Program-made: the position numbers and the translations under genes
Shown here: piece after piece, positions 7,284-64,000 of the stretch
Numbering within the stretch: the first letter of the stretch is position 1
How the letters are laid out: every line of letters begins with the position of its first letter
Notes under the pieces: generated by a model
The model's database searches: none
What the model saw: the letters and a program-made list of their open reading frames with translations, nothing else
What the model was told of the DNA's origin: nothing
NCBI GenBank assembly: GCA_002726235.1
Contig: PBSN01000013.1
Span: forward strand, 1 to 64,000
DNA length: 64,000 nucleotides
Direction: 5' to 3'
Source of the DNA: Nitrospiraceae bacterium
GTDB lineage: Bacteria > Nitrospirota > Nitrospiria > Nitrospirales > UBA2166

Positions 7284-7307
7284 ACGAACAGCGTTGATCA
7301 CTGGTAT

Positions 7308-8081
7308 GTGGTGATGCGAGACGGTGATCCGCCTTATGACGATGATCTGATTGTTGGAGTACATCCACTCAAAGAAGCTCTCCGCACAGTCAATGTGCGA
7401 CTAGACCAAGTAATCATTCGGCAGGGCTCCCGCAATCGTCAGCATGAAGAAATACGGCGCTTGGCAAAGCACGCGTGCGTTCCCGTCAAACTTGTTCCGA
7501 GCGAAGCGTTGGACCGCTTGGCTCGGTCGCCCAAGCATCAGGGCGTTCTTGGCTATGTCTCGCAAAAAGTGTATGTGTCGTTTGATGCCTTATTGGAGGA
7601 AGTGGGAATGGCCGAGGTGTCCCCGTTTTTGCTTGTGCTGGATGGGGTAGAAGATCCAAGAAATATGGGAGCCATCATTCGGACTGCTGAGGGTGCTGGA
7701 GTCAGCGGGGTGGTCGTGCCTGATCGGCGCGCTGTTGGTATGACAAGCGTTGTAGCCAGGGCTTCTGCTGGTGCTCTTGAACACGCTACCGTAGCGCGGG
7801 TTGCCAATCTGTCACAAAGCATTGAGCGACTTAAATCAAATGGGGTATGGGTGTATGGCCTTGATCCTCATGCAGCCAAGAGTTACCTCGACCTTGACTA
7901 TCGCGGTCCAATTGCGATTGTCGTTGGTGGTGAGGGGAGAGGGATTCGTCCTGGGCTTCTCAAGCAGTGCGATGATCGCGTGGCAATTCCAATGCAGGGA
8001 ACAGTGTCGTCCCTTAATGTGTCGGTTGCCGCCGCAGTTCTGTTCTACGAAGTTGTTCGGCAACGAGGGGGTTCGGAATGA
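7308..8081 (+). CDS. rlmB: 23S rRNA Gm2251 methyltransferase (SpoU/TrmH family)
   Basis: HQGV, LDGVEDPRNMGAIIRTA, GGEGRG, IPMQGTVSSLNVSVA. Confidence 0.93.
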   Translation: MVMRDGDPPYDDDLIVGVHPLKEALRTVNVRLDQVIIRQGSRNRQHEEIRRLAKHACVPVKLVPSEALDRLARSPKHQGVLGYVSQKVYVSFDALLEEVGMAEVSPFLLVLDGVEDPRNMGAIIRTAEGAGVSGVVVPDRRAVGMTSVVARASAGALEHATVARVANLSQSIERLKSNGVWVYGLDPHAAKSYLDLDYRGPIAIVVGGEGRGIRPGLLKQCDDRVAIPMQGTVSSLNVSVAAAVLFYEVVRQRGGSE

Positions 8082-8121
8082 CCTGTCGGTGCACGGATAG
8101 GTTTAACGGAGAGGTGCATCA

Positions 8122-8913
8122 GTGGTCGGCAGCATTGCAGTAGTGACATTCGCATTTGGCGCTATTGTGGGAAGCTTTCTCAATGTGTGCATTCACCGCC
8201 TTCCTCGCGGCATGTCAGTGGTTCGTCCTGCGTCACATTGTCCCGCTTGTCAGAGGCCTCTTCGCGCTACGGAGAATATTCCTTTTTTTAGCTTTCTCGT
8301 GTTGCGTGGTCGGTGCCGGCATTGCAATGTGAAAATCTCATGGCGCTATCCGTTTGTTGAGGGACTGAACGGTCTTGCGTATGTGTTGGTCGTGAAGCAG
8401 TTTGGATTCGAGCCTGCCACATTTGTCTACGCACTGTTGCTTTCGGCGCTGATCGTTGTCACCTTCATTGATCTTGATCATCAGATTATTCCAAATGAAA
8501 TTACATACCCTGGCATGCTATTAGGGCTCCTTGCCGCGGTCACGGTGCTTCCTATCAGTTGGTGGGATTCGTTGGGAGGGTTGCTGTGCGGAGGAGGCGT
8601 ATTGCTCTTCGTTGTTTGGATCAGCCCCTATATTTTCGGACGTGAGGGCATGGGCTTAGGAGATGTCAAGCTTCTTGCGATGTTAGGGGCCTTTCTCGGC
8701 TGGCAAGCCACGTTGCTCACGTTGCTATTGGCTGCGTTTTCTGGATCGATGGTAGGACTGACGTTGGCCGTTACGAAACTCATCACACTCAAGGATCCAA
8801 TTCCATTCGGGCCTTTTCTCGCGCTGGGTGCGACATTGGCGCTCTTTTTTGGCGCAGGACTTATCGACTGGTATACCGGATTGTTCGAGGTCGAGGGTTT
8901 TAGGTTTCGGTGA
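8122..8913 (+). CDS. pilD: Prepilin peptidase / N-methyltransferase (A24)
   Basis: GSFLNVCIHRLP, two CxxC pairs, FIDLDHQIIP, GMGLGDVKL, IPFGPFLA. Confidence 0.95.
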   Translation: MVGSIAVVTFAFGAIVGSFLNVCIHRLPRGMSVVRPASHCPACQRPLRATENIPFFSFLVLRGRCRHCNVKISWRYPFVEGLNGLAYVLVVKQFGFEPATFVYALLLSALIVVTFIDLDHQIIPNEITYPGMLLGLLAAVTVLPISWWDSLGGLLCGGGVLLFVVWISPYIFGREGMGLGDVKLLAMLGAFLGWQATLLTLLLAAFSGSMVGLTLAVTKLITLKDPIPFGPFLALGATLALFFGAGLIDWYTGLFEVEGFRFR

Positions 8914-8964
8914 AGAGAGTCCCAGCGTAGGCAAGCTATAAAACGAGATTAGGATCTTCTTATG

Positions 8965-9183
8965 TTATGGACTCTGCACCTCAGGGTANCCGAGTGCCGC
9001 GAGTTTTTCCACGAGGTTCTCACGGGACAATTGGGGTCCTTGTACTGCCACCTGTCCAGTTGAAACCTCGACCTCGACACTGTCAATGTTGGGAAGGGCG
9101 AGCAAGCCTTCCCGTATGTTGGTGGCGCAACCATCGCACTTCACTTTCTGAACCATAAACAATTCGCGTTGCATCACTTTCAT
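8965..9183 (-). CDS. Heavy-metal-associated domain protein (CopZ-like chaperone)
   Basis: VKCDGCAT metal-binding motif, about 70 aa; start at 9183 or 9174, downstream of a G-rich RBS. Confidence 0.8.
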   Translation of the reverse strand: MKVMQRELFMVQKVKCDGCATNIREGLLALPNIDSVEVEVSTGQVAVQGPQLSRENLVEKLAALXYPEVQSP

Positions 9184-9346
9184 TCCCCCCTGTACAACGA
9201 TAGCAGTTATTGTGAGTGGCGAGTCTTTGACCAAGAGAGTTTTGCATATCAGTTGCTCGCTGTCATCACTTTTTTGATATACAGCGGGGGGCATGATTGC
9301 ATTTTCGGAAGGTTTGTGGTTTTTATGGCTCGAGTCGTTACGTGTT

Positions 9347-9420
9347 TGGGGGATCGTCTAATGGCAGGACGGCAGACTCTGACTCTGTCTATCAAGGTTC
9401 GAATCCTTGTCCCCCAGCCA
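9347..9420 (+). tRNA. tRNA-Gln (CTG)
   Basis: TGGGGGA/TCCCCCA acceptor stem, GCAGA-CTCTGAC-TCTGT anticodon arm, GGTTCGAATCC, encoded CCA. Confidence 0.97.
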
Positions 9421-9524
9421 CTGCGTAGCGCGGGTGTTTCAACAGGACGTCACGGCCTCGCAGACGAGAGGCTGGGAGTAAGATGAGTGACCAATGGGAG
9501 CACCCAAATCACAAAACCCTAAGG

Positions 9525-9564
9525 CTGTATCCATAGAGACACGTGCGTATCGCTATGGATACAG
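9525..9564. other. Inverted repeat/hairpin downstream of tRNA-Gln
   Basis: CTGTATCCATAG...CTATGGATACAG, 12-bp perfect stem. Confidence 0.7.
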
Positions 9565-9974
9565 TGCGTATGTGAAGCCTTCGCCTTTTTGTTTGGTGCG
9601 TCGCGCTTCATGCAACTGACAAATCTCTTTATCAATTAGCCGCTTCGTTCGAGTGCTGTCTTCGGGTCATCGCTGCGAGTGTTCCTTGGCATCATTTATG
9701 CTGTCCCTATGACAGTGCCGTTGCGTTGAGGGGTGCCGAGCAAAGGTGTGCTGGGTACAGGTCGCTTCGGAGACCCAGTTTCAGAATGATGATTCTGACG
9801 TGGGGTGTGCCTGCCGGACGAAGATCACTCAGTCCATGACTTGGTGAGCGAGATCAACTAATCCGAAAGTGAGGTGAGCATTGTGATTCAAAGAGAGGCA
9901 TGATCATGGTGGAGTTCCACTGGGATGCTTCGATGAGAATTTCAAATTTGATCAAGCTTTGTTAGATACGTCAC

Positions 9975-10004
9975 TTGACAGGGGCGTTGTGGGCGCTGGA
10001 TAAT
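9975..10004 (+). promoter_or_regulatory. Sigma70-type promoter for collagen-like lipoprotein 1
   Basis: TTGACA-18 nt-GATAAT followed by GCGCNAGCC; matches the promoter at 14498. Confidence 0.65.
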
Positions 10005-10272
10005 GCGCNAGCCAATAGTGACAAATATTTGGCGCTGGCTATGGGTGACTGCATTTTTGCCCGCAATTGGTTTTGGTAGGTGTCCATAATGTAGTGGGTT
10101 TAGGGAATCAGAATAAAATTAGGGAGTTAGTGCGAGGCGAGAGCGAGAAAATGAAGGGAATANGAAAGACTGGAAAGAAAGGAAAGTTCGGTGGTCACTG
10201 GGGAAAATTGGGAGGGGAACTACCCTCTTCCTAATCAATCCGCATTCAAGGGAAGAAGGAGGATTTAGCGAC

Positions 10273-12054
10273 ATGGGATACATGAGGAAAAAGACGAGAA
10301 AGGGTTCATCTACCCTCGTCCATTTGCTGGCTGTTATGGCATTGGGATTGTTTTTGGTGGCCTGCGAAGGCGAAGAGGGTCCCGCGGGGCCTGCAGGAGC
10401 ACAAGGTGACGCCGGCGAGACTGGGGCGACTGGAGCGCCAGGTGTTGGTGTTGCTGGCGAGNCCGGCGNGGCCGGCGCGNCCGGCGAGACTGGGGCAACC
10501 GGCGCGCAAGGCCCNCTTCCGGCTGGAGCGGTGGGACTTACGGGCACGGTAATGAAGGGAGCTCTTGTAGGAGCAACGGTGACGTTTAAGGGAACTGGTG
10601 CGGGTTGTACGGCCATAGGCAATACGGCAACCGGAACACCCCCGCTGTGTAATCTTGCGGCGACTAATACTGTTCTTTCGGCAACTACCGACTCAGGTGG
10701 TGGCTACAATGTCCAGATCAATACTGACTACACGGGGCCGATCATTATCGAGGCCNCTGGTGGTACCTATCTCAATGAAGCGGATGGATTGACCAAGACG
10801 GGACCATCCACAGCGATGAAGACTGCCGTACCGGTCGCGCCAACCACTGGCCAACTCGTCGCCTCCGTGACCCCGTTCACGTCAATGGCGGCTGCGCGGG
10901 CTCTCTCACAGGCGACCACATTCGCAGTAACCTCAACACTCATTACTGCAGCGAACGATGCCGTAGAAGCACTCTATGGGATTACCGATATTATCGGGAC
11001 GGATCCAATTAATACCTCCCTCGTACTGCCGGCTGGTTCTACTGCCCAGCCCCAGCAATACGGTCTTATGACGGCTGCATTTTCCCAGGCGGCTGCGACT
11101 CTTGGCATCGTGGATCCACTCAATTTTGTGAACGCTGTGGTCACGGATTATACGGATGGCGTCTTGGACGGAAAGTCTGGCTCTGACGCAAATAATGCAG
11201 CTGCGGGAACCGCCATCACGCCGACTGGAACGACAGTGCCTCTCACGGCAACTTCGGCTGCGACTGAGCTTGTGACAGCAGCCATCACGTTTGGAGCGTC
11301 TGCACTTAATGTGTCGGGCGTAACGATTTCGGCAGCTGTTCAGACTGCAACGACGGCTGCTGCTACGACTTCGACAGCGTCAACCGCCTTGTCCTATTCC
11401 GTTTTGAATAATCGGATCATCCTGCGGTCGGGCGNGACACCTGTTGATACTGCTCAGGGCGTCGAGTCTATCACGAGTGGAGTCGCCATCATGGCGCCGG
11501 CAGTAGCGCAGGAGAACGCGACATTGAAGGTGGTCGTGCCCTATGCGCTTGTGACCGGCACCGCTGCGGCGAACGTGGCACCGCAATTCACATTGTGTGC
11601 GGCAACGGCCGCCAACTCGGAGACCTGCCACGCTACGGACAAGAGGAGTATGACCATCACGCTGAGCCAGCTGACTCTTACGCCATCTGGCAGCATTCTG
11701 ATTGCGACGATTCCCGCCTCATCGGTTGTCACGTTTAGTGGAACGGATTCCGATGGCACAGCGGTCACCCTCGCGGCGAGTCAAGCGCCAGGAACCATTT
11801 TCACGGTATCAGCGACGACGAACGCTCATGAGCTGACGTTCGATCCCAACGCGCTTCTTGNAGTGTTGCGGACAGCCGGCGTCACAAGTGTGGATTTGCT
11901 CNANGAAGCTGGACACTATACCTACACGGTTACTCCATCGGCACTGACTTATCTCCGGTCCAATGGGGTGCAGGCGACATGCACATCGGCAGATGTGACA
12001 GTAGGAGCGTGCGTGTCTACGACAACAATCAAAGGCCCCTTGAACATTTCGTGA
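10273..12054 (+). CDS. Collagen-stalk, Ala/Thr-rich surface lipoprotein (paralog 1)
   Basis: Lipobox LVAC; about 16 Gly-X-Y triplets; KG..GA.V / TTD..G.Y / GGTYLNE / VTPFT domain; C-terminal Cys pair; RBS GGAGG. Confidence 0.85.
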   Translation: MGYMRKKTRKGSSTLVHLLAVMALGLFLVACEGEEGPAGPAGAQGDAGETGATGAPGVGVAGEXGXAGAXGETGATGAQGXLPAGAVGLTGTVMKGALVGATVTFKGTGAGCTAIGNTATGTPPLCNLAATNTVLSATTDSGGGYNVQINTDYTGPIIIEAXGGTYLNEADGLTKTGPSTAMKTAVPVAPTTGQLVASVTPFTSMAAARALSQATTFAVTSTLITAANDAVEALYGITDIIGTDPINTSLVLPAGSTAQPQQYGLMTAAFSQAAATLGIVDPLNFVNAVVTDYTDGVLDGKSGSDANNAAAGTAITPTGTTVPLTATSAATELVTAAITFGASALNVSGVTISAAVQTATTAAATTSTASTALSYSVLNNRIILRSGXTPVDTAQGVESITSGVAIMAPAVAQENATLKVVVPYALVTGTAAANVAPQFTLCAATAANSETCHATDKRSMTITLSQLTLTPSGSILIATIPASSVVTFSGTDSDGTAVTLAASQAPGTIFTVSATTNAHELTFDPNALLXVLRTAGVTSVDLLXEAGHYTYTVTPSALTYLRSNGVQATCTSADVTVGACVSTTTIKGPLNIS

Positions 12055-12103
12055 TATAAGGGAAGGGGTAGCGAAAGCGTTGAGTCACTAAGCAAGACGC
12101 TAC

Positions 12104-12153
12104 AAAGTACGAAGGGTCCAATTTCCTGTATGGAGTTGGACCCTTCGTACTTT
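12104..12153 (+). terminator. Intrinsic terminator (possibly bidirectional)
   Basis: AAAGTACGAAGGGTCCAA...TTGGACCCTTCGTACTTT, 18-bp inverted repeat. Confidence 0.85.
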
Positions 12154-12184
12154 TATCTACTTCCGGAGAAAGGCTGATCGGCAC

Positions 12185-13972
12185 GTGATCTCTCGTATAA
12201 CAAGTGTTCCAATAATTCGGATAATTCTTATATGCGCAGTGGTGGCGGGATCCATTGATGTGGCATGGGGAGAGAAAACTGGCCATCTCTTCTCTCGCAC
12301 ACTTGGGAATACGGTTCCGCAAGTGATTTCCTGGTTTGGGTTTTCGGTTGAGTCGATTGGGGATCTCACTGGGGATGGTGTTGCGGACCTTGTGGTGGGT
12401 GCGCCACAGCAAACCCTGGACGGTATTGCGCAGCAGGGCAAGGTGAGCGTGTTTTCTGGTCGAGATGGAACCATCCTCTTGACACTTCTTTCCCCTTCCC
12501 CTCAGCCTCAAGCGAACTTTGGCGAAGTCGTAGCCGTCAGTGATATCAATCGGGATGGCATCTCTGATCTCGTGGTTGGTGTTCGCTTGCAGGATGTGGA
12601 TGGGAAGGAAGATCAAGGAGCAGTACATGTGTTTTCGGGTGCCGACGGCACGTTGTTGTCTGCCATCGAGGCACCGATTCCGCAGGCACACGCTTTTTTT
12701 GGCGCCGCGTTGGCGCCTTTATATGACCGGAGCAATCAAACCGGGAGAGCCGAAATCGTTGTCGGCGCTCCGCAGCAATCGTTTGGCGATGGTGCTGGCG
12801 AGGGCGCGGCATTTATGTTGTCAGCAACGACTGGGGAGCCGCTTTCCGTCATTTTGCACCCAGACCCGCAAGACGGAGCAGCATTCGGGTGGGCGGTCGA
12901 ATCGGTGGGTGATCTCGATGGAGATGTCGTGCCTGACTTTATTGTTGGCGCTCCATTTCAAACGGTGTCAGGACGTGAGCTGCAAGGCCAGGTCTATGTT
13001 TTTTCCGGTGGGAGCGTGTTGTCTGGGCAGACTGTCGAACGCCCTGCTCATATGTATACCTTGAACTTCCCTGACCCCGACATGCCGTCGGCGCGGTTTG
13101 GGTTTGCGCTCGCAAGCATTCATGATGTCAATGACGATGGAGTCCCTGATCTCGTGGTCGGCGCACCGACGGCTGACTTTGGAGATCTTAGCAATCGGGG
13201 CAGCGCGTTTATCTTCTCTGGGGCCGATGGGATGCTTCTGCNTACCCTCACTGACCCAGCGCCTCTGCAAGATGCGTTTTTCGGCGCGGCGCTCATATCG
13301 CCTGGTGATGTTGATGGTGATGGCATTGCCGATGTTGCGGTTGGTGCGCCGACTCCCGTGACCCGAGGAAGCGCATTCGTGCAGCCCGGCAGGGTGCTGT
13401 TGTTTAGCGGTGCCAGTGGAGAACACCTCGTGACGTTGGATCCCCCTTCCCCTGGCGTAGGTGCGAGTTTCGGGTTTTCGTTGGCAGCTGTTGGGGACGT
13501 CGATGGGGATGGAATGCCAGATTTGCTTGCAGGGGCCCCCTTTCATGACGTGACGCTTGATGAGAAAACGCATGCAGCGCAAGGGGAAGCCTTTGTGATT
13601 GATGGGTTGGGGCCAGATCTTAAAGGGAAAGTTCTTGAGGTGGTCCGGACAGTTACTGTATCCGGCCAAGACCGTCTTGATTTTATGGTGAAGATTAAGA
13701 ATCGAGGCACAGTCAAAACAACGGTGCCGTTTAAGGTGAAAGTGCATATTTCAAATGATGAGGCTTTCGATGGTGGAACCCTTGATCCCAGGGTTGCGAA
13801 ATGGAAAGTAGTGGAGTCCTTGTCTCCTGGTGCCTCGATTATTCTCACCGGGGTTGCGGAATTTAACGAATCAGTTGCCGGCAAGTTTTTGCTCGTCAGG
13901 GTTGATCCCAAGAATGAAATTGCGGAGAAACAAGAGGGGAATAATATCAAGCGTCTCAAGGTNCCAGGTTGA
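12185..13972 (+). CDS. Secreted FG-GAP (integrin-alpha-like) beta-propeller protein with C-terminal CARDB-like domain
   Basis: Seven FG...GDxDGDGxxDLxVGAP repeats; signal-like N-terminus; PDL...IKNRG...VDPKNEIAE..EGNN tail. Confidence 0.88.
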   Translation: MISRITSVPIIRIILICAVVAGSIDVAWGEKTGHLFSRTLGNTVPQVISWFGFSVESIGDLTGDGVADLVVGAPQQTLDGIAQQGKVSVFSGRDGTILLTLLSPSPQPQANFGEVVAVSDINRDGISDLVVGVRLQDVDGKEDQGAVHVFSGADGTLLSAIEAPIPQAHAFFGAALAPLYDRSNQTGRAEIVVGAPQQSFGDGAGEGAAFMLSATTGEPLSVILHPDPQDGAAFGWAVESVGDLDGDVVPDFIVGAPFQTVSGRELQGQVYVFSGGSVLSGQTVERPAHMYTLNFPDPDMPSARFGFALASIHDVNDDGVPDLVVGAPTADFGDLSNRGSAFIFSGADGMLLXTLTDPAPLQDAFFGAALISPGDVDGDGIADVAVGAPTPVTRGSAFVQPGRVLLFSGASGEHLVTLDPPSPGVGASFGFSLAAVGDVDGDGMPDLLAGAPFHDVTLDEKTHAAQGEAFVIDGLGPDLKGKVLEVVRTVTVSGQDRLDFMVKIKNRGTVKTTVPFKVKVHISNDEAFDGGTLDPRVAKWKVVESLSPGASIILTGVAEFNESVAGKFLLVRVDPKNEIAEKQEGNNIKRLKXPG

Positions 13973-56494: not shown

Positions 56495-56995
56495 CTAAGG
56501 CGTGGCAGGGGACGATGGCACTGCTGCGAGGAGGCAGACCGCATGAGCGGCAATGGCCTCTTCTCTCCCGATCCCGTCAATCCCCTCTCCTGATTTGACT
56601 TTCACGTTAACACGCTGCTGATCAACGCCTAAAACGGCAGCAAGCCGAGCTTTGATTGCGGGCAGATGCGGGCCCAAGCGGGGGGCCTGAGCGACAATCA
56701 CGGTATCGACGTTGAGCAGAGAATATCCCTTCGTCGTGACGAGTTTCTGGACATCTTCAAGCAAAACCACGCTCGCGATATTTTTGAACGACGGATCATT
56801 GCTTGGAAAGCGTGATCCGATATCACCTTCTCCCAACGCGCCAAGTAGTGCATCGCAGACTGCATGGATTAGTGCATCGGCATCGGAGTGGCCGGCAAGA
56901 CCCTTGTGGTGAGGAATCTCGATGCCTCCTAGAATAAGCCGACGGTTTTTTGCCAGGGGGTGAATGTCATACCCGAGTCCGACGCGCATAGTCAT
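56495..56995 (-). CDS. ispF: 2-C-methyl-D-erythritol 2,4-cyclodiphosphate synthase
   Basis: [30 protein letters not shown]. Confidence 0.96.
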
Positions 56996-57717
56996 GGTGT
57001 TACCGCAGTCTGTTTGGTCTCGCGCCAATGCAGGAAACTTTCCGCGAAAGCCAGGTCTTGCGGGGTCGTAATCTTCATGTTGTCACTGGAACCCTCATGC
57101 ACCTTCACCTTATAGCCGAGGCGCTCGACCAGCGCCGCTTCATCAGTCATCTGAATATGGTTGGTGCGCGCATGATCGAGTGCGTTCACTAGGACATCGT
57201 ATCGAAATGCCTGAGGTGTTTGTGCCGTCCACAGCCCCTTTCGATCGATCGTCTCCCTGATCATCCCATCTTCGGATACGCGTTTGGTTGTATCCTGCAC
57301 TTTCATCGCAACGATAGCGCCGTCGACCTCGGTTGCTGCCTGGATGCAGTGCTCAAACATCTTCGGTGTCGCAAATGGGCGTACGCCATCGTGGATTACC
57401 ACTATATCAGTTCCGGGGGACACGTTTGCGAGACCCTGCGAAACCGAATCTTGGCGAGTTGGCCCTCCGGTCAGAACGTGTGCGACTTTGGTGAGGCCGT
57501 AGCTATCTACGATTGTCTCACGCCACTCGCGTTCGGCTCCTGCAGGAACCACCACAATGACTTCTCGTATAGCGGGGATAGCCTGAATCGTCCGAAGCGT
57601 GTGCACGATGAGAGGATATGCTCCTAGGGGTAAAAACTGCTTTGGCAGTTGATGTCCCATTCTGATGCCTCGCCCCGCGGCCGGAATAAGTGCGGTAACG
57701 TTAACTGGGGGAATCAT
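56992..57717 (-). CDS. ispD: 2-C-methyl-D-erythritol 4-phosphate cytidylyltransferase
   Basis: IPAAGRG.RM, PKQF, RQDSV, IHDGVRP, AQTPQAF, TDEA, KITTPQDL. Confidence 0.96.
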   Translation of the reverse strand: MIPPVNVTALIPAAGRGIRMGHQLPKQFLPLGAYPLIVHTLRTIQAIPAIREVIVVVPAGAEREWRETIVDSYGLTKVAHVLTGGPTRQDSVSQGLANVSPGTDIVVIHDGVRPFATPKMFEHCIQAATEVDGAIVAMKVQDTTKRVSEDGMIRETIDRKGLWTAQTPQAFRYDVLVNALDHARTNHIQMTDEAALVERLGYKVKVHEGSSDNMKITTPQDLAFAESFLHWRETKQTAVTP

Positions 57718-57906
57718 CTATTATACACCCTCATTCATTCTGTGTATTTTCTGTGCACTTCGTTCGCTCTCGCGCCGACCCATCATAATACGCTTTGAAT
57801 GCGAGCGGCGCAATTTCCTTTCCTTCCAAAGAGCCGAAAGTAAAGGGGTTTTTCGCTAGGATGTGGCGCCGTGGGGTGGGTTGCTCCTCGGTACGGAAAA
57901 AGTTTC

Positions 57907-57934
57907 TTGACAAGTTTTCCGAAAGTGGTATAAA
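57907..57934 (+). promoter_or_regulatory. Sigma70 promoter facing the peroxidase-Rieske-molybdoenzyme operon
   Basis: TTGACA-16 nt-TATAAA with extended -10 TG. Confidence 0.6.
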
Positions 57935-58375
57935 GGCGGTTCGCAGCCCTATGGGGGGGTCTGCATTGCGGGCTGGGAAATCAGTTTCCAGCGGTTTGCA
58001 AGTGAGCAGTTGTGCTCAAAATGGGAGAGGGGCTACGATCGTTCCTAGTGCTTGGCGCGTGCGCTCGGGTCAAATTTTGTTGTGCGAGATTGTTTGTTGG
58101 CCAGAGTGTGAGATCTCTTACATCGCTAAGACAGGCGGGCGTTTTATCGTGTCGGTTCGCGTGTAATGACATTATGTACGGTCCTTGCGATTCAGATAGT
58201 GTGAATTTTTGCAGATAGTATGAATTTTTGTATTCACTGGCAGCCAATGAAGCTAACTGCGTATGATCCCGAAAGGAGGTGCCGCAACAGGTGTTGGCCT
58301 GGCATGGTAGGGGCGAGCCAATACAATGCTCGGAAGGCGTATGATATGACAGCAGGAAAAGAGAGTGCAGGCATG

Positions 58376-58422
58376 ATAGGGGAGAGGGTTTGAATGAGAC
58401 GCTCTCCCCTATTGTTTTTGTT
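58376..58422 (+). terminator. Intrinsic terminator inside the operon leader
   Basis: ATAGGGGAGAG...CTCTCCCCTAT 11-bp stem followed by TGTTTTTGTT, ending 55 nt before the ATG at 58478. Confidence 0.75.
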
Positions 58423-58477
58423 ACGGATCAGGTTTCAGTTTTAATCAACGTTCTTTCAATCAAGAGGGGGTGTATGT

Positions 58478-60013
58478 ATGAGCATACATAACTGGAAAGT
58501 AGTGAGTAGCTTGGTGTTGGCCATGCTTCTGGCTTTCGGCGTCGGGACGGCTTTCGGCGCAGCCAAGATGGAGCTGGGCGACGATGGTTACACCGTTCCG
58601 GTGACCGACAATACGTTTGGGTTCTGGGACGAGGGATACGCGAGCTATACGGGCACTGACAATCCGAACATTGTCGCGATTCCGTTGGCGCAGGTTTTGA
58701 CGCCATTGCCGCAGGGTGCAGCTAGTGCCACACGGAACAAAGATGGTAGCGGTGAAGGCTACACCATTGGCAAATGGACGTATTGGGCGGGTGAATATAG
58801 CGATCTCCATCCCATTGAAGAAGCGGGAACTCCGTTGCCGCCAAATGAAATGGGTGTGCCGACCATGTTGAAGGCCGTTCTGGGTGAGAAAGCCTTCTTT
58901 GATGGGCGGTATTCCGGGGACACCAGCACGCCGTGTTCCAAGTGTCATGATCCGGCCCAGGGCTTCGGAACCTTCGACGACGTGTCGACGGGGTATCCGA
59001 GCATCATTCACTGGCGGAACAGCCATACGACCATGAACAACGCATGGCACGACAAGTTTTTCTGGGATGGACGGGCCTTGGCCTTGGACAGTCAGGCAGA
59101 GGGCGCCAACACGGGCTCAGGCTTAGCCGGCAATGCGACGTCCGAGCACATGCTCCCGCGGCATTTCCAATCTGATGAGTACACCATTGGTTTTTTCCAG
59201 GAGTGGAATGCTCCTCCATCCATTGCAAAGATTGACTGGGCCATCGACATCTACGAGCGGATCACACGGTCGGATCCCAACGTCGTCCCGTTTGATATGT
59301 GGATGAACGGCGATGAAGATGCCATTTCCGATGAAGCCAAGCGGGGCGCTGAGCTCTTCAACGGCGAATGGGATTGTGTGCGTTGCCACTTTGGCCCGCA
59401 TGGCGTGGGGACCCAGGATTTCTATAGCTTAGGGTTGCCGCGTATTGCTTCTTTTGACGATGATCCGTTACGCCAAGAAACAGTCCGCTACATCGACTAT
59501 GGAGCCGGTATGCATGGCATCATGGATTGGGACTTGGACTATTTCGATGACCTCGGCATCGGTATGCGGACACACTTGAAACAAGATTTGATGCATCTCA
59601 AAACCCAGCAGTTGCGTGAACTCTGCGTAACCATGCCGTACTTCCATCAGGGTACCCACAATGACCTGGATGAAGTGGTGCGGTTCCACCTGCATGGTGG
59701 CGGCAATCCGTACCTTAAGGATGCGGACGGTCGTGGGGCTGACTTTGCTGGTTGGCGCCATGAGGGTCGCGAGGGTGAAGATCCTGGACCTGGTACCGGC
59801 GGTTTCCCTGGTACGGTGAACTACGACCGCCCTGGGAAGAAAGGTGCCAACATGAAAGTGATCAATGACCCCGCTGATGAGGATGTCGACGCCATGGTGG
59901 CGTTCTTGGAGTCCATGTGCACGCCGGAAGAAGAGGGCAGTGCTCCGTGGACGGAGCGGAAGGTGTCAGTTCCGAGATATTCACCACCGCTCTATACGGG
60001 ACCTCAACCGTAA
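58478..60013 (+). CDS. Periplasmic di-heme cytochrome c peroxidase/MauG-family protein (IdrP-like position)
   Basis: Sec signal; LGE.AFFD.R.SGD, CSKCH, FFWDGRA, AKRGAELF, CVRCH, LREL..T.PYFH.G. Confidence 0.9.
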   Translation: MSIHNWKVVSSLVLAMLLAFGVGTAFGAAKMELGDDGYTVPVTDNTFGFWDEGYASYTGTDNPNIVAIPLAQVLTPLPQGAASATRNKDGSGEGYTIGKWTYWAGEYSDLHPIEEAGTPLPPNEMGVPTMLKAVLGEKAFFDGRYSGDTSTPCSKCHDPAQGFGTFDDVSTGYPSIIHWRNSHTTMNNAWHDKFFWDGRALALDSQAEGANTGSGLAGNATSEHMLPRHFQSDEYTIGFFQEWNAPPSIAKIDWAIDIYERITRSDPNVVPFDMWMNGDEDAISDEAKRGAELFNGEWDCVRCHFGPHGVGTQDFYSLGLPRIASFDDDPLRQETVRYIDYGAGMHGIMDWDLDYFDDLGIGMRTHLKQDLMHLKTQQLRELCVTMPYFHQGTHNDLDEVVRFHLHGGGNPYLKDADGRGADFAGWRHEGREGEDPGPGTGGFPGTVNYDRPGKKGANMKVINDPADEDVDAMVAFLESMCTPEEEGSAPWTERKVSVPRYSPPLYTGPQP

Positions 60014-60078: not shown

Positions 60079-60660
60079 ATGGAAGTTAAGAAGAAAGAAA
60101 TAGCCGAAGAGCCCGAAGATTGTGGCTGTGGCGTGACGCGACGCCAGGTCATGGTTGGGGCAGCAGTCGGTACGGCAGCCCTTGCGGCGTCGGGTCTTGT
60201 GACCGGCAAGCCGGCGATTGCAGGAAGTATGGACGGATACCCAAGGAAGTTGATTGGTACGGTGAGCGGTCTTTCGACTGACCAGCCGCAGGTGTTCACG
60301 TATCCTCAGGATGCTCCATCGATTTTCCGGTCTGCGCTCGTAAAGCTCGGCGTTCCGGCGGTTGATGGTGTTGGCCCTGAAGGTGATATCGTGGCCTTTA
60401 ACGGGCGATGCCCTCATCAGGGTGGCGAGCTCGTTCCTGAAGACGACACTCTTCGGTACGATGGGGCGTCGAAAACCATGGGTCCGTGCCCGTGGCACCT
60501 TTCAACATTTGACGTGAGCAATGAAGGTATGATCACCAGTGCTCATTCCACCCAAAACCTGCCACAGATCGTGTTGGAGGTTGAGGGGGACAACATTTAC
60601 GCAGTTGGTGTAAAGGGGCTCATTTACGGGATGCCCTCCAACTTGATGCAAGTGAGCTAA
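60079..60660 (+). CDS. Tat-exported Rieske [2Fe-2S] small subunit, AioB/IdrB family
   Basis: TRRQVM Tat motif; FTYP, GVGPEGDIVAF, CPHQG, CPWH.STFD, TQNLPQIVLE, IYAVGVKGLIYG. Confidence 0.93.
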   Translation: MEVKKKEIAEEPEDCGCGVTRRQVMVGAAVGTAALAASGLVTGKPAIAGSMDGYPRKLIGTVSGLSTDQPQVFTYPQDAPSIFRSALVKLGVPAVDGVGPEGDIVAFNGRCPHQGGELVPEDDTLRYDGASKTMGPCPWHLSTFDVSNEGMITSAHSTQNLPQIVLEVEGDNIYAVGVKGLIYGMPSNLMQVS

Positions 60661-60672
60661 GGAGGGGAACTC

Positions 60673-63366
60673 ATGGCAGGAACAAGCTTCAGTAATGTAG
60701 GGTTCGCGAAAGACGAACCTACTGATAAGGTACCCCTTCCTCCGAAAGATGCGAAGGTGTATCCGACGGCCTGCGATTACTGCATCGTTGGCTGTGCCTA
60801 TAAAGCGTTTGTATGGCCTAAGGGAACCGAAGGCGGCCCGGCGGCTGGCGACAATGCCTACGGCGTTGATTTTCCGCGGGTGGATGCACTGGCGGGTTGG
60901 TGGCCAACCCCCAACCAGTACAATGAAGCCTACATTGACGGCAAGCTCCACAGTATTGTCGTAATTCCTGATGGCAATGCCACGGTAGTGAACCGTGCTG
61001 GAAACCACAGTATTCGTGGTGGAGCAATTGCGCAGAAAATTTACAATCCCAACAAGGGCACTCGGGATCGGCTTCAGACCCCGATGATGCGGGTTGGGAA
61101 TTATCACCTTCCGGTGTCTTGGGACACCGCGACGCGTGTGGCCGGTGAATTGATGCGCTACACCGTCAATGAGTTTGGGGAGCTGGCGTTGACCGGAAAG
61201 GTCGGCAGCTATATTTTCTGGGAAAATACCTATGCCTGGACCAAGCTCATGATGCAGCAGTTCGAGACCATGATGGTTGCGCACCATGATAAGCCGTCAT
61301 GGAGTTTCGGGGCGGATAGTTCCGCCATGTCGGCGCTCGGTATCAATGCGTTTGCGCCGGCCTATGATGATTACTCCACGGCAGAGGTGATCTTCTCGTC
61401 CGGTACGGATTCTTACGAGGATCATACCGTGCTCTGGACGGAGTGGATTCAGCAGGCGGAGCCGACCATGATTTATGTGCTTCCGCGTCAATCGAAGGGT
61501 GTGCCGTGGGCACTTTCCCGTGGTGGTGTGTACCTTGAAGTTTATCCTGGTACCGACGTTCCGGTTATGAACGCGATCTCTCGCGTGATTATTGAGAATG
61601 GCTGGTATGACAAGAGCTGGCTCAATTATCACGGTGTGACCCGTCATGACATTAATGCGGGCATGGGACGTGGAAAGCGGAATAGCCACAAGCAGTGGCG
61701 TACTACCAAATGGGGACTGACGCTGTCTGAGTTCAAGCAGTTCATCCTCAATGACGAATTTTCAACGTTAGAGGCTGCAGAGAAGATTGCCGGCGTTAAA
61801 CGTGCCGATATCGTTCGAGCGGCTGAAATTATGGCGAAGCCGAAGCCAGATGGTTCGCGGACCAAGACCTCGTTCTTGAATGAGAAGGGGAACTATTGGT
61901 CGAACAATTGGCTGAACAACGCGGGCTTTGTGAACTTGGCGTTCTTGTGCGGCGCTGGGACTCGTCTCGGTCAGGTCATCGGCCGTGGTGGTGGACACCA
62001 ACGTGGCATGATTCAGGGAAGCAAGTTCCTTTCGCATAAATCGCCTAACCGTTATGGGCAGAATACTCGAGTTGCTGGCGATGTCGACCAGTGGGTGCAG
62101 GCCGGCCATGCCCGTTTCTTCTACCTGACGGCTTGTCAGTGGACCAACTGTAGCTGCGCTGCAAGCGACCTGTCGGAAACCATTGCGGATCAGACAGTCA
62201 GAATGCCGCAGCAGCTCCAAAGTACCGATGCCGATCATGCGATTCAGGTCTTAAAAGAAAGAATGCAGAATCGTGGGTTGGTGCTGGTGCATCAAGACGT
62301 GTATGCCCGTGATGTCACTGAGATGGCGGATATCGTTTTGCCTGCCGCACAGTGGGGCGAGGCTGACTTGACGCGTGCTCAGGGTGAGCGGCGTATGCGT
62401 GCGTACAGTAAGTTCACCGATCCTCCCGGAGATGCCAAGCCGGACTGGTGGATTACACAAAAGATTGGGCAGTATGCAGGGTTTGGGGCAAACGGCTTTA
62501 ACTGGAAGACCAACCGCGACGTGTTGAAAGAAGCCGCGCGTTATTCCAGAAAGGGCGTGTTGGAGTATGCCCCGCTGATTCGGTACACCACCCGCTTGAA
62601 AGCGGATCCGTTCAAGTTCATCCAGTCCTTGGGGTCGACAGGTTTGCAGACGCCCATTCGGTTGGACTTGGGCAAGTTGGTTGGAACCAAAAAGCTCCAC
62701 TATGAATCTGCGCCGCAGATGCGTCACGAAGAGAACACCACGCACCACAAAAAGCTGTTCAACTGGTTCACCTTCTCCACAGGGAAGGCGATGTTCTTCA
62801 AGACCGATTGGCGGCTGTTCTCTGATTACTTTGAGCGGATTAAACCACGCGGTGATGAACTGTGGGTGACCAACGGCCGCGTGAATGAAATCTGGCAGTC
62901 CTTGTATGACGATCTTCGTCGTCCATATATCATGCAGCGGTATCCGATGAACTTCATCGAGATGCATAAAGACGATGCTGCCGCGCGTGGTATTGAGACG
63001 GGCGATCTCGTCGCGGTCGAAAACGATGACCTGCTGATTCAAACCGGTGGTCAGTTCGGTGTCCGCGATGAAGACTCGCTCTTTACGGGGCTGATGAAGA
63101 ATGGGCACATCAAACGGTCTCGTGCCGCTCTGACCGCTATGGCTGTTGTGAATACCGACGTCAAGAAGGGCGTCACCTTCATGTACTTCCTGTGGCCAGG
63201 GTCTTCGTTTAACAGCTTGATGCATGCTGTTCCGGATCCGATTACTGCTGCTCCGCGGTATAAGACTGCGAAGGGCCGGATTCGTAAGATCGGTGAGACG
63301 GCTGCGAAGCGGAGCGGGATCCTCAGGGGTCTTGAGCACAAAAACACCATGCCGGAATGGGCCTAA
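60673..63366 (+). CDS. Molybdopterin oxidoreductase large subunit, AioA/IdrA family (substrate unknown)
   Basis: VPLPP, C34-x2-C37-x3-C41-x71-S113 (CDYCIVGC...HSIRGG), EKG..W, RGGGHQ, VLPAA.WGE, GERRMR, TNGRVNE.WQ; no signal peptide. Confidence 0.92.
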   Translation: MAGTSFSNVGFAKDEPTDKVPLPPKDAKVYPTACDYCIVGCAYKAFVWPKGTEGGPAAGDNAYGVDFPRVDALAGWWPTPNQYNEAYIDGKLHSIVVIPDGNATVVNRAGNHSIRGGAIAQKIYNPNKGTRDRLQTPMMRVGNYHLPVSWDTATRVAGELMRYTVNEFGELALTGKVGSYIFWENTYAWTKLMMQQFETMMVAHHDKPSWSFGADSSAMSALGINAFAPAYDDYSTAEVIFSSGTDSYEDHTVLWTEWIQQAEPTMIYVLPRQSKGVPWALSRGGVYLEVYPGTDVPVMNAISRVIIENGWYDKSWLNYHGVTRHDINAGMGRGKRNSHKQWRTTKWGLTLSEFKQFILNDEFSTLEAAEKIAGVKRADIVRAAEIMAKPKPDGSRTKTSFLNEKGNYWSNNWLNNAGFVNLAFLCGAGTRLGQVIGRGGGHQRGMIQGSKFLSHKSPNRYGQNTRVAGDVDQWVQAGHARFFYLTACQWTNCSCAASDLSETIADQTVRMPQQLQSTDADHAIQVLKERMQNRGLVLVHQDVYARDVTEMADIVLPAAQWGEADLTRAQGERRMRAYSKFTDPPGDAKPDWWITQKIGQYAGFGANGFNWKTNRDVLKEAARYSRKGVLEYAPLIRYTTRLKADPFKFIQSLGSTGLQTPIRLDLGKLVGTKKLHYESAPQMRHEENTTHHKKLFNWFTFSTGKAMFFKTDWRLFSDYFERIKPRGDELWVTNGRVNEIWQSLYDDLRRPYIMQRYPMNFIEMHKDDAAARGIETGDLVAVENDDLLIQTGGQFGVRDEDSLFTGLMKNGHIKRSRAALTAMAVVNTDVKKGVTFMYFLWPGSSFNSLMHAVPDPITAAPRYKTAKGRIRKIGETAAKRSGILRGLEHKNTMPEWA

Positions 63367-63527: not shown

Positions 63528-64000
63528 ATGAAAAAGCTACTTACACTTGCGGTGGCCGGCGTCTTTTTAGCCTTTGGCTTTGCCGCGACTGCGGATGCGC
63601 AGATTAAAAAACCAGGTTTCCAGAAAAAAGCTCCAAAAATGCCGAAGACGGCTTATGCTGAAGGTTCCGCTGGCGGCGGATCTGTGGCCGGGAAAGTGTC
63701 CTACTCTGGCAAGGTGCCGGATCCAAAGCCGTTTACCATCAGCAAAAATCCTGAAGTTTGTGGAATTGAAGGCAGTGGAAAAGCAACGAGTGGCGGCCAG
63801 CAGTACTCTACAGAGGGCCAGCGAGTCTTCCACTTCACCTATGCGCCGGGCGGTGTCGCACAGCATGCTGTTGTCTTCATCGAGGGCATTGAAACCGGCA
63901 AGCCGTGGGGCGATTTTGGCGCAAAGATGGACATTCGTGCCGAGGATTGCGCATTTCTTGAGTACCAGAACCTCGTCCGTGACGGAACCACCGTGTTTGA
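63528..64000 (+). CDS. Secreted protein, carboxypeptidase-regulatory-like/beta-sandwich type (3' truncated; not in ORF track)
   Basis: GGGAGG RBS; MKKLLTLAVAGVFLAFGFAATADA signal; GGSVAGKVSYSG, KNPEVCG, HAVVFIEGIETGKP, DCAF; frame open to window end. Confidence 0.8.
   Translation, partial: MKKLLTLAVAGVFLAFGFAATADAQIKKPGFQKKAPKMPKTAYAEGSAGGGSVAGKVSYSGKVPDPKPFTISKNPEVCGIEGSGKATSGGQQYSTEGQRVFHFTYAPGGVAQHAVVFIEGIETGKPWGDFGAKMDIRAEDCAFLEYQNLVRDGTTVF

Follow-up and report, generated by a model that had tools for sequence, protein, structure and literature searches.

Does a gene cluster whose two core subunits both pass curated arsenite-oxidase models encode that enzyme, or a respiratory module of another kind? 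The cluster lies at the end of the window analysed here, a 64,000-nucleotide stretch (positions 1 to 64,000, forward strand) of contig PBSN01000013.1 from the Nitrospiraceae bacterium assembly GCA_002726235.1; features that run past the window are given on the same contig as C13. At its centre is an 897-residue open reading frame (ORF) at 60673..63366 on the plus strand, an idrA-like catalytic subunit of the molybdenum-bis-pyranopterin guanine dinucleotide (Mo-bisPGD) type without signal peptide, here called the query. Judging from sequence, we consider it probable that this is no arsenite oxidase but a respiratory module of the iodate-reductase (Idr) type, located in the periplasm. As alignments, profiles and trees place it, the query is a divergent member of the known IdrA family, labelled arsenite oxidase in databases. 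We thus have a known system in variant form: the protein belongs to a sister subclade, and the operon, rearranged yet conserved, contains genes for a cupredoxin and a cytochrome c as well.

Family placement of the catalytic subunit

The arsenite-oxidase label has a clear source. The query carries the Pfam domains Rieske_3 (3Fe-4S), Molybdopterin and Molydop_binding, and scores 428.8 bits against TIGR02693, the NCBIfam arsenite-oxidase equivalog (cut-off 359.05), while the Rieske ORF that ends 12 nt before it scores 97.5 bits against TIGR02694 (cut-off 95.65). The best 120 relatives of the catalytic subunit (44-93% identity, 859-920 residues, many phyla) are, where named, called arsenite oxidase, because these equivalogs score both subunits above cut-off; no separate IdrA model appears among the NCBIfam matches of the subunits. 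The nearest solved structures are those of AioA and AioB, to which the catalytic ORF (chain 4aay, E 7e-75, HMMER) and the Rieske ORF (E 6.6e-24) respectively align. These results favour the reading of automatic annotation, a true if divergent arsenite oxidase (AioAB), yet the query is only ~30% identical to AioA-type representatives and falls outside the AioA clade in both trees that we built.

These trees, for which a different MopB protein from this genome served as root, used rows hand-picked from the matches, with partial proteins excluded; the first held 57 rows (LG+G4) and the second 56 (LG+C20 with posterior mean site frequencies), each by quick search with support from the Shimodaira-Hasegawa-like approximate likelihood-ratio test (SH-aLRT). 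The underlying genome survey took one genome per species and gave 80 related loci, among which Pseudomonas sp. SCT and Denitromonas IR-12 do not figure. Both trees put the query in a subclade supported at 100 by SH-aLRT (six rows in the first, 11 in the second) that includes P0001, L085, P0002-P0005, L087, L088, L090 and L127; within it the query, P0001 and L085 share a long stem of 0.63-0.76. The subclade is sister, with support 99, to a canonical IdrA clade comprising Rokubacteria, the Lindowbacteria protein P0037, Ruegeria halocynthiae, Moritella dasanensis, Vibrio splendidus and SAR324, and the two are joined with support 100 to the exclusion of AioA. Several branches with support of at least 95 part the query from the AioA rows in either tree. 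Profile scores agree: a hidden Markov model (HMM) of 72 idr-locus subunits, 71 of them with upstream peroxidase ORFs and none from the query's own subclade, gives the query 1059.9 bits, and an AioA HMM (36 rows) gives 486.7 bits, less than half as much. Identity to canonical idr loci is 40-48%.

The canonical clade is tied to published iodate reductases by name. The supplement of PMC8692401 lists Moritella dasanensis (our L075) and Ruegeria halocynthiae (L045) in a species table, and its iodate-reductase clade figure shows Vibrio splendidus (L084) and a Lindowbacteria protein matching the name of P0037, with Rokubacteria, Planctomycetes and Nitrospina on deep branches. IdrABP1P2 systems are known from Pseudomonas sp. 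SCT, Denitromonas iodatirespirans IR-12 and Roseovarius azorensis, and function in the canonical clade is documented by an idrA knockout, by activity staining and mass spectrometry in Roseovarius azorensis, and by expression in E. coli of clusters from SAR324 and alphaproteobacterial metagenome-assembled genomes (PMC8692401, PMC11445184, PMC13455634).

Substrate pocket compared with arsenite oxidase

The first-pass annotation of this DNA had singled out 60772-62010, from the Cys34 codon to one codon beyond Gly445, as part of a molybdoenzyme that keeps its 3Fe-4S motif and remodels its substrate pocket. Its reading of the motifs is sound. The cluster motif is C34-x2-C37-x3-C41-x71-S113 (CDYCIVGC, residues 34-41; GNHSIRGG, residues 110-117), with the three cysteines encoded at 60772..60795 and the fourth position, Ser113, at 61009-61011. 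The pocket strings are likewise all present, on the same plus strand: HHDKPSWSFGADS at residues 204-216 (61282..61320), EKGNYWSNN at 404-412 (61882..61908), one residue shorter than AioA EKGIIWGNDN, and RGGGHQRG at 438-445 (61984..62007). The AioA counterparts, HNRPAYNSE, EKG(L/I)IWGND and R(L/M)GGHQEG, are as it gave them in the solved chains (4aay/5nqd, and the 8cgs/1g8k type; HMMER). Since C34, C37, S113, H205, E404-K405-G406, R438, G440-G441, H442, Q443 and R444 are invariant in 121 of 121 sequences (query and best 120 relatives), with C41 kept in 120, these motifs are conserved and not due to chance.

Two further features of the motif region vary within the family. We rejected the x71 spacing between the third cysteine and the serine as a meaningful feature: sequences of the query's type (HQR type, after GGHQRG) themselves mix x70 (125), x71 (44) and x69 (21), and the AioA type has x70 (20) and x68 (13). 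The residue after HDKP, in a column that we take to be the Mo-ligand position, is G in 72, S in 31, T in nine and A in five of the 121. IdrA has been listed with 'no amino acid ligand' to Mo (PMC10100899). Private to the query's lineage is a two-residue insertion, S209-W210, in the catalytic loop, found in two of the 121 sequences (query and P0001); L085 shares the clade and ORF length of these two carriers. At position 413, Tyr has given way to Trp.

For arsenite oxidase from strain NT-26, PMC10448176 names Asp169, His199, Arg201, Glu207, Lys413, Arg447, His451 and Glu453 as conserved second-sphere residues, places Asp169 and Glu453 at the funnel entrance, and reports activity losses of 30% and 65%, respectively, when these two are changed to alanine. 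We compared these eight positions and Asn200 (NT-26 numbering throughout) in an alignment of 238 rows, made up of the query, its best 120 relatives, 14 cluster representatives, 73 locus ORFs and 30 of 119 AioA matches. The latter, from a search seeded with P0148, are a narrow sample, all alphaproteobacterial at 79% identity or more, of which every fourth was taken.

The rows fall into two types without exception: all 199 HQR-type sequences also have H-D/E/H in place of HNR, and all 38 AioA-type sequences combine HNRP..E with HQE/D. Four positions are shared and invariant in both types, namely His199, Lys413, Arg447 and His451, which correspond to His205, Lys405, Arg438 and His442 of the query. 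The others part the two types. Asp169 is D in 36 AioA-type rows (A and F once each) and S in 192 HQR-type rows (N 4, G 2, T 1), the query having Ser179 (61207..61209), after which four residues are deleted relative to AioA; the HQR type as a whole is without four residues of the AioA DHGG loop beside this position. Asn200 and Arg201, invariant in the AioA type, become D in 196 (E 2, H 1) and K in 117 (T 46, N 25, others 11), as in Asp206 and Lys207 of the query. Glu207, again invariant in the AioA type, is mostly D in the HQR type (126; S 61, E 5, others 7), and Asp215 of the query lies opposite it. Glu453, present as E in 37 and D in one AioA-type row, is R in all 199 of the HQR type (Arg444). 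Measured against the eight second-sphere residues of AioA, then, the query keeps four identical, has two conservative changes, and has lost both funnel acids; formal charge over the nine positions is about 0 in AioA and about +2 in the query.

On these results the earlier claims part company. The His/Arg/His positions said to be kept are indeed invariant (H205, R438, H442), and the change of QE to QR is real and a constant of the clade. A lost Glu in HNRP..SE is not borne out: Asp215 stands opposite this Glu both in HMMER alignments to 4aay, 5nqd and 8cgs and in two MAFFT alignments, and the His-to-Asp offset of relatives without the query's insertion equals the His-to-Glu offset of AioA. An acidic residue here, named beforehand as counting against the claim, is therefore found at the level of sequence alignment. 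The more positive pocket stands in so far as about two charges are gained over the nine positions, but the larger change, Asp169 to Ser179, had been overlooked. Nor is the remodelling peculiar to this protein, being family-wide in a published enzyme family. The suggestion of a substrate other than arsenite gains support, in that the query groups with reductases of an anion, iodate, in trees and HMM scores.

Arsenite is most likely not the substrate of this enzyme, and the HD.P/HQR motif set is a family signature that distinguishes IdrA from AioA. The main texts of PMC8692401 (apart from one unread mention of 'active site'), PMC10989891, PMC13455634 and PMC11445184 yielded no analysis of active-site residues in IdrA, and one may be in print in the original description or in supplements.

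Outside both Idr clades lie small HQRG groups (L061/L096; P0122/P0127/P0128; P0123), then the HQEG proteins P0131 and P0124, and then the AioA type. In L061 (Pelagibius sp., 7301-13279), L096, P0122, P0123, P0127 and P0128, GGHQRG is already present and HNRP..E already gone; L061 has one peroxidase gene, in the order Rieske-Mo-cupredoxin-peroxidase, and no peroxidase gene was seen at L096. Arsenite oxidase and iodate reductase may be linked by these groups as intermediate forms.

Small subunit, peroxidases and gene order

The idrB-like Rieske [2Fe-2S] subunit (193 residues, 60079..60660, plus strand; Pfam Rieske) has a twin-arginine leader, TRRQVM, and the boxes CPHQGG and CPWH. The first-pass annotation had remarked that the disulfide cysteines of some AioB proteins are missing, which is correct but ordinary: the boxes read C-T-H-M-G-C and C-P-C-H in A. 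faecalis AioB (1g8j_B), and CPHKGF and CPGH in wild-type NT-26 AioB (4aay_B), which lacks these cysteines too. None of the motifs found among 76 IdrB locus homologues has Cys at either disulfide position, and RRx[FVLIM] is matched in 75 of the 76.

Upstream of idrB is an idrP1-like di-haem cytochrome c peroxidase of 511 residues with a signal peptide (58478..60013, plus strand; Pfam CCP_MauG, E 1.1e-24; CSKCH at 153, CVRCH at 300). Downstream of idrA, in the same orientation, come three more genes: a cupredoxin-like gene, an idrP2-like di-haem peroxidase of 443 residues with two CxxCH motifs that groups with distal IdrP2 (C13:64444-65775, beyond the window), and a monohaem cytochrome c of 163 residues recognised by its haem motif (C13:65919-66410, also beyond the window). 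The order of the cluster is hence P1-B-A-cupredoxin-P2-cytochrome c, with intergenic gaps of 12 to 158 nt. In a peroxidase tree of 51 rows, a split with support 99 separates proteins proximal to idrB (P1) from distal ones (P2); the query lineage has long stems on both sides (IdrP1 1.61, IdrP2 1.31). Because the window's upstream peroxidase falls on the P1 side and its downstream peroxidase on the P2 side, orthologues of IdrP1, IdrB, IdrA and IdrP2 are, by this phylogenetic measure, all present, and idrP2 has moved downstream.

The order idrP2-idrP1-idrB-idrA has been used as a marker of iodate-reductase clusters (PMC8692401, PMC10989891). It prevails in our survey: among the 69 genome loci whose Mo gene is preceded by 3.2 kb or more, 63 show two separate peroxidase ORFs and then Rieske-Mo, and the remaining six comprise five with one long upstream peroxidase ORF (698-890 residues) and L061 with a downstream peroxidase only. 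The five long ORFs belong to deep-branching loci (L007, L008, L011, L013 and L073), and could be IdrP2-IdrP1 fusions or an artefact of first-start-codon choice. Crown loci keep P2-P1-B-A, the AioA-like loci L159-L164 consist of Rieske-Mo only, and in L005 a peroxidase directly follows the Mo gene. The window's own order recurs in seven complete related metagenome loci, L085 (91% identity), L087-L091 (48-49%) and L127 (52%), the last of which also has the cytochrome c (50% identity); L094 shows the downstream half of this order.

The cupredoxin-like protein

The gene after idrA encodes a secreted cupredoxin-like (type-1 copper) protein of ~293 residues, recognised by ligand motifs and fold (63528..64000 in the window, on to C13:64409; plus strand). 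In a 294-residue string that starts one codon before the ATG, H168, C220, H223 and M226 are invariant across 19 homologues. The AlphaFold2 model has a mean predicted local distance difference test score (pLDDT) of 80.5, and its best Foldseek matches are amicyanins (e.g. 1aaj, 1id2; probability 1.00, TMt 0.62-0.66). As modelled, the protein is a cupredoxin fold with His, Cys, His and Met ligands, and is predicted to bind copper. It resembles amicyanins in this fold and in His...Cys-x2-His-x2-Met, but differs in its length of ~290 residues, in the joining of the domain to a CarboxypepD_reg-like beta-sandwich, and in an identity of 12-14%. Pfam sees that sandwich in 16 of the 19 homologues, and Copper-bind matches one.

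Homologues, every one with C-x2-H-x2-M, accompany 24 of 80 genome loci and 20 of 80 metagenome loci, where the gene directly precedes the peroxidase genes or lies downstream of idrA (examples are L027:4318-5040, L008:4196-5191 and L061:11322-12083). Neither 'cupredoxin' nor 'azurin' occurs in the main text of PMC8692401. About 20 kb downstream of the window's copper protein is a 285-residue paralogue (C13:83877-84734) with the same HNPH and CDQH..M motifs; it adjoins a 1365-residue ORF that runs to the contig end (C13:84894-88988), with His-rich motifs (HSHHPHGG, HCHVAHH) reminiscent of multicopper oxidases, in a part of the contig that contains ambiguous bases.

Distribution, RNA-library coverage and genome context

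Matches (E <=1e-50) were found in five of 61 genomes, that is, the window's own and 60 relatives. Three of the five species representatives of the genus have one (the window's genome, G000, and G001 and G003, both at 91% identity), and G002 (88% complete) and G004 (96% complete) gave none. In the rest of the order, G025 has a match at 53% identity, the only one among 18 genomes of its family, and G023 a partial match at 39%; the 19 genomes of the third family have none. The idr-type cluster is thus a patchy, accessory trait and is probably transferable, since it occurs in three of five representatives of the genus and in only one or two of the 56 other genomes of the order.

Sequence archives hold close copies of the cluster. 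Ten of 11 listed runs contain part of idrBA; six have half or more of the sampled words, nine are recorded as RNA, and the source is five studies. The stretch of C13 between ~58.2 and 66.7 kb is matched, at an identity of at least 99%, by contigs of RNA libraries that belong to three studies: three X1 contigs at this identity cover C13:58323-66704, one of them spanning idrB to the end of the copper-protein gene, and shorter pieces in X2, X3 and X5 (hydrothermal-vent library) account for most of it. This coverage is consistent with transcription of the cluster. Its onset near C13:58.2 kb (X1-X3, with nothing upstream) was not used as a transcript start; contigs cannot show ends.

The immediate neighbours, from reading the translations, are ispD, ispF and a serine acetyltransferase-like ORF, and 760 nt without genes (57718-58477) separate idrP1 from the divergent ispD (56992-57717, minus strand). 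In the genome at large, which is 90.65% complete, we found no NarG/NxrA over cut-off, no SoxB and no haem-copper oxidase of the COX1 family; two long genes for cytochrome bd-like subunit I are present (C7:100846-101583, C8:275810-276547). The other MopB ORFs are those on C4 and C27, which begin with Cys-rich, ferredoxin-like stretches and by eye resemble NuoG or formate dehydrogenase, and one 714-residue enzyme on C14.

Proposed mechanism and alternative substrates

Set beside IdrABP1P2, the window's cluster shares a signal-less Mo-bisPGD subunit with a 3Fe-4S motif, a Tat-exported Rieske partner, two di-haem peroxidase genes orthologous to P1 and P2, the family signature HD.P / (N/F)YWSN-N / GGHQRG, and even the annotation as arsenite oxidase. 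It differs in the place of its catalytic protein, in a long-branched sister subclade with a two-residue loop insertion, and in its rearranged order. By analogy with AioAB and IdrAB, the Tat leader of IdrB would carry the signal-less IdrA, with its Mo-bisPGD and 3Fe-4S centres, across the membrane. The cupredoxin or the cytochrome c would then, following published Idr models, pass electrons to the Rieske centre, from which they would move on to 3Fe-4S and to Mo, where iodate (IO3-) would be reduced to hypoiodous acid or iodide, and the peroxidases would remove a reactive by-product such as H2O2. We infer that IdrB receives its electrons from the cupredoxin, from the cytochrome c or from the two together; iodate as the substrate is likewise a proposal. 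The His/Lys/Arg/His catalytic core is kept and the acids at the funnel mouth are replaced by Ser179 and Arg444, an arrangement that, as aligned, suits an anionic substrate.

Several observations weigh against this reading. Demonstrated Idr activity, in the literature available to us, lies in the canonical sister clade and outside the query's subclade, and the link to validated IdrA consists of organism names in one paper's supplement. Curated arsenite-oxidase models pass their cut-offs for both subunits, Asp206 contributes a negative charge beside the Mo site, the canonical P2-P1-B-A order is absent, and contigs from RNA libraries can include DNA. Altered specificity is possible because the query lineage combines long stems (those of IdrA, IdrP1 and IdrP2 alike) with its private two-residue insertion in the catalytic loop.

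The alternative that survives best takes up this last point, and holds that the locus encodes an Idr-like reductase acting mainly on another oxidant (chlorate, bromate, another oxyanion or a peroxide-linked substrate) through the same Rieske, 3Fe-4S and Mo wire and peroxidase partners. We regard it as doubtful, though it has a case: the subclade is sister to, and outside, the clade that holds every organism named in the idr papers, the SW insertion falls within the H205-D215 catalytic loop of a long-branched lineage, and the operon layout, with its embedded cupredoxin and cytochrome c, is distinct and conserved. Set against it are residues H205, K405, R438, H442, R444 and S179, all as in canonical IdrA, the retention of both peroxidase orthologues, and the presence of the cupredoxin gene with canonical idr loci as well.

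A related and, in our view, unlikely proposal is that the P1-B-A-cupredoxin-P2-cytochrome c subclade forms a functionally distinct system, with either a non-iodate substrate or an iodate respiration, fed by the copper protein, that small-genome marine bacteria use as their main electron sink other than oxygen; were this so, the private SW insertion in the catalytic loop would retune the pocket.

A true arsenite oxidase is very improbable: the locus shares with AioAB of Pseudorhizobium banfieldiae NT-26 (4aay/5nqd) and Alcaligenes faecalis (1g8k) the domain set, subunit pair, 3Fe-4S Cys3+Ser site, Rieske partner (without a disulfide, as in NT-26), His/Lys/Arg/His core and an acid at the Glu207 position, but Asn200, Arg201, Asp169 and Glu453, invariant or nearly so in the 38 AioA-type sequences, have all changed in the query (to Asp, Lys, Ser with its four-residue deletion, and Arg), Glu207 is Asp after the two-residue insertion, further insertions occur (e.g. 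around residues 787-818), two peroxidase genes stand in the cluster and none in the AioA-type loci L159-L164, and the reaction proposed here, reduction of an anion, would run in the opposite direction.

Implications

An iodate-reductase-type module, as we favour for this locus, bears first on annotation, given that the curated arsenite-oxidase models call the window's locus, and hundreds like it, arsenite oxidase. A residue rule that holds without exception in 238 sequences (HNRP..E with HQE, against HD.P with HQR and the lost Asp169 loop) separates the two, and gives a charge-based explanation, open to test, of how a neutral substrate, arsenite, could have been exchanged for an anionic one, iodate. 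The cupredoxin encoded alongside idr loci is a concrete candidate for the electron donor. A lineage and a second operon layout are added to the candidate marine iodate reducers, and RNA libraries from marine and hydrothermal-vent sources contain near-identical sequence, all of which is relevant to how iodide is produced where water is low in oxygen.

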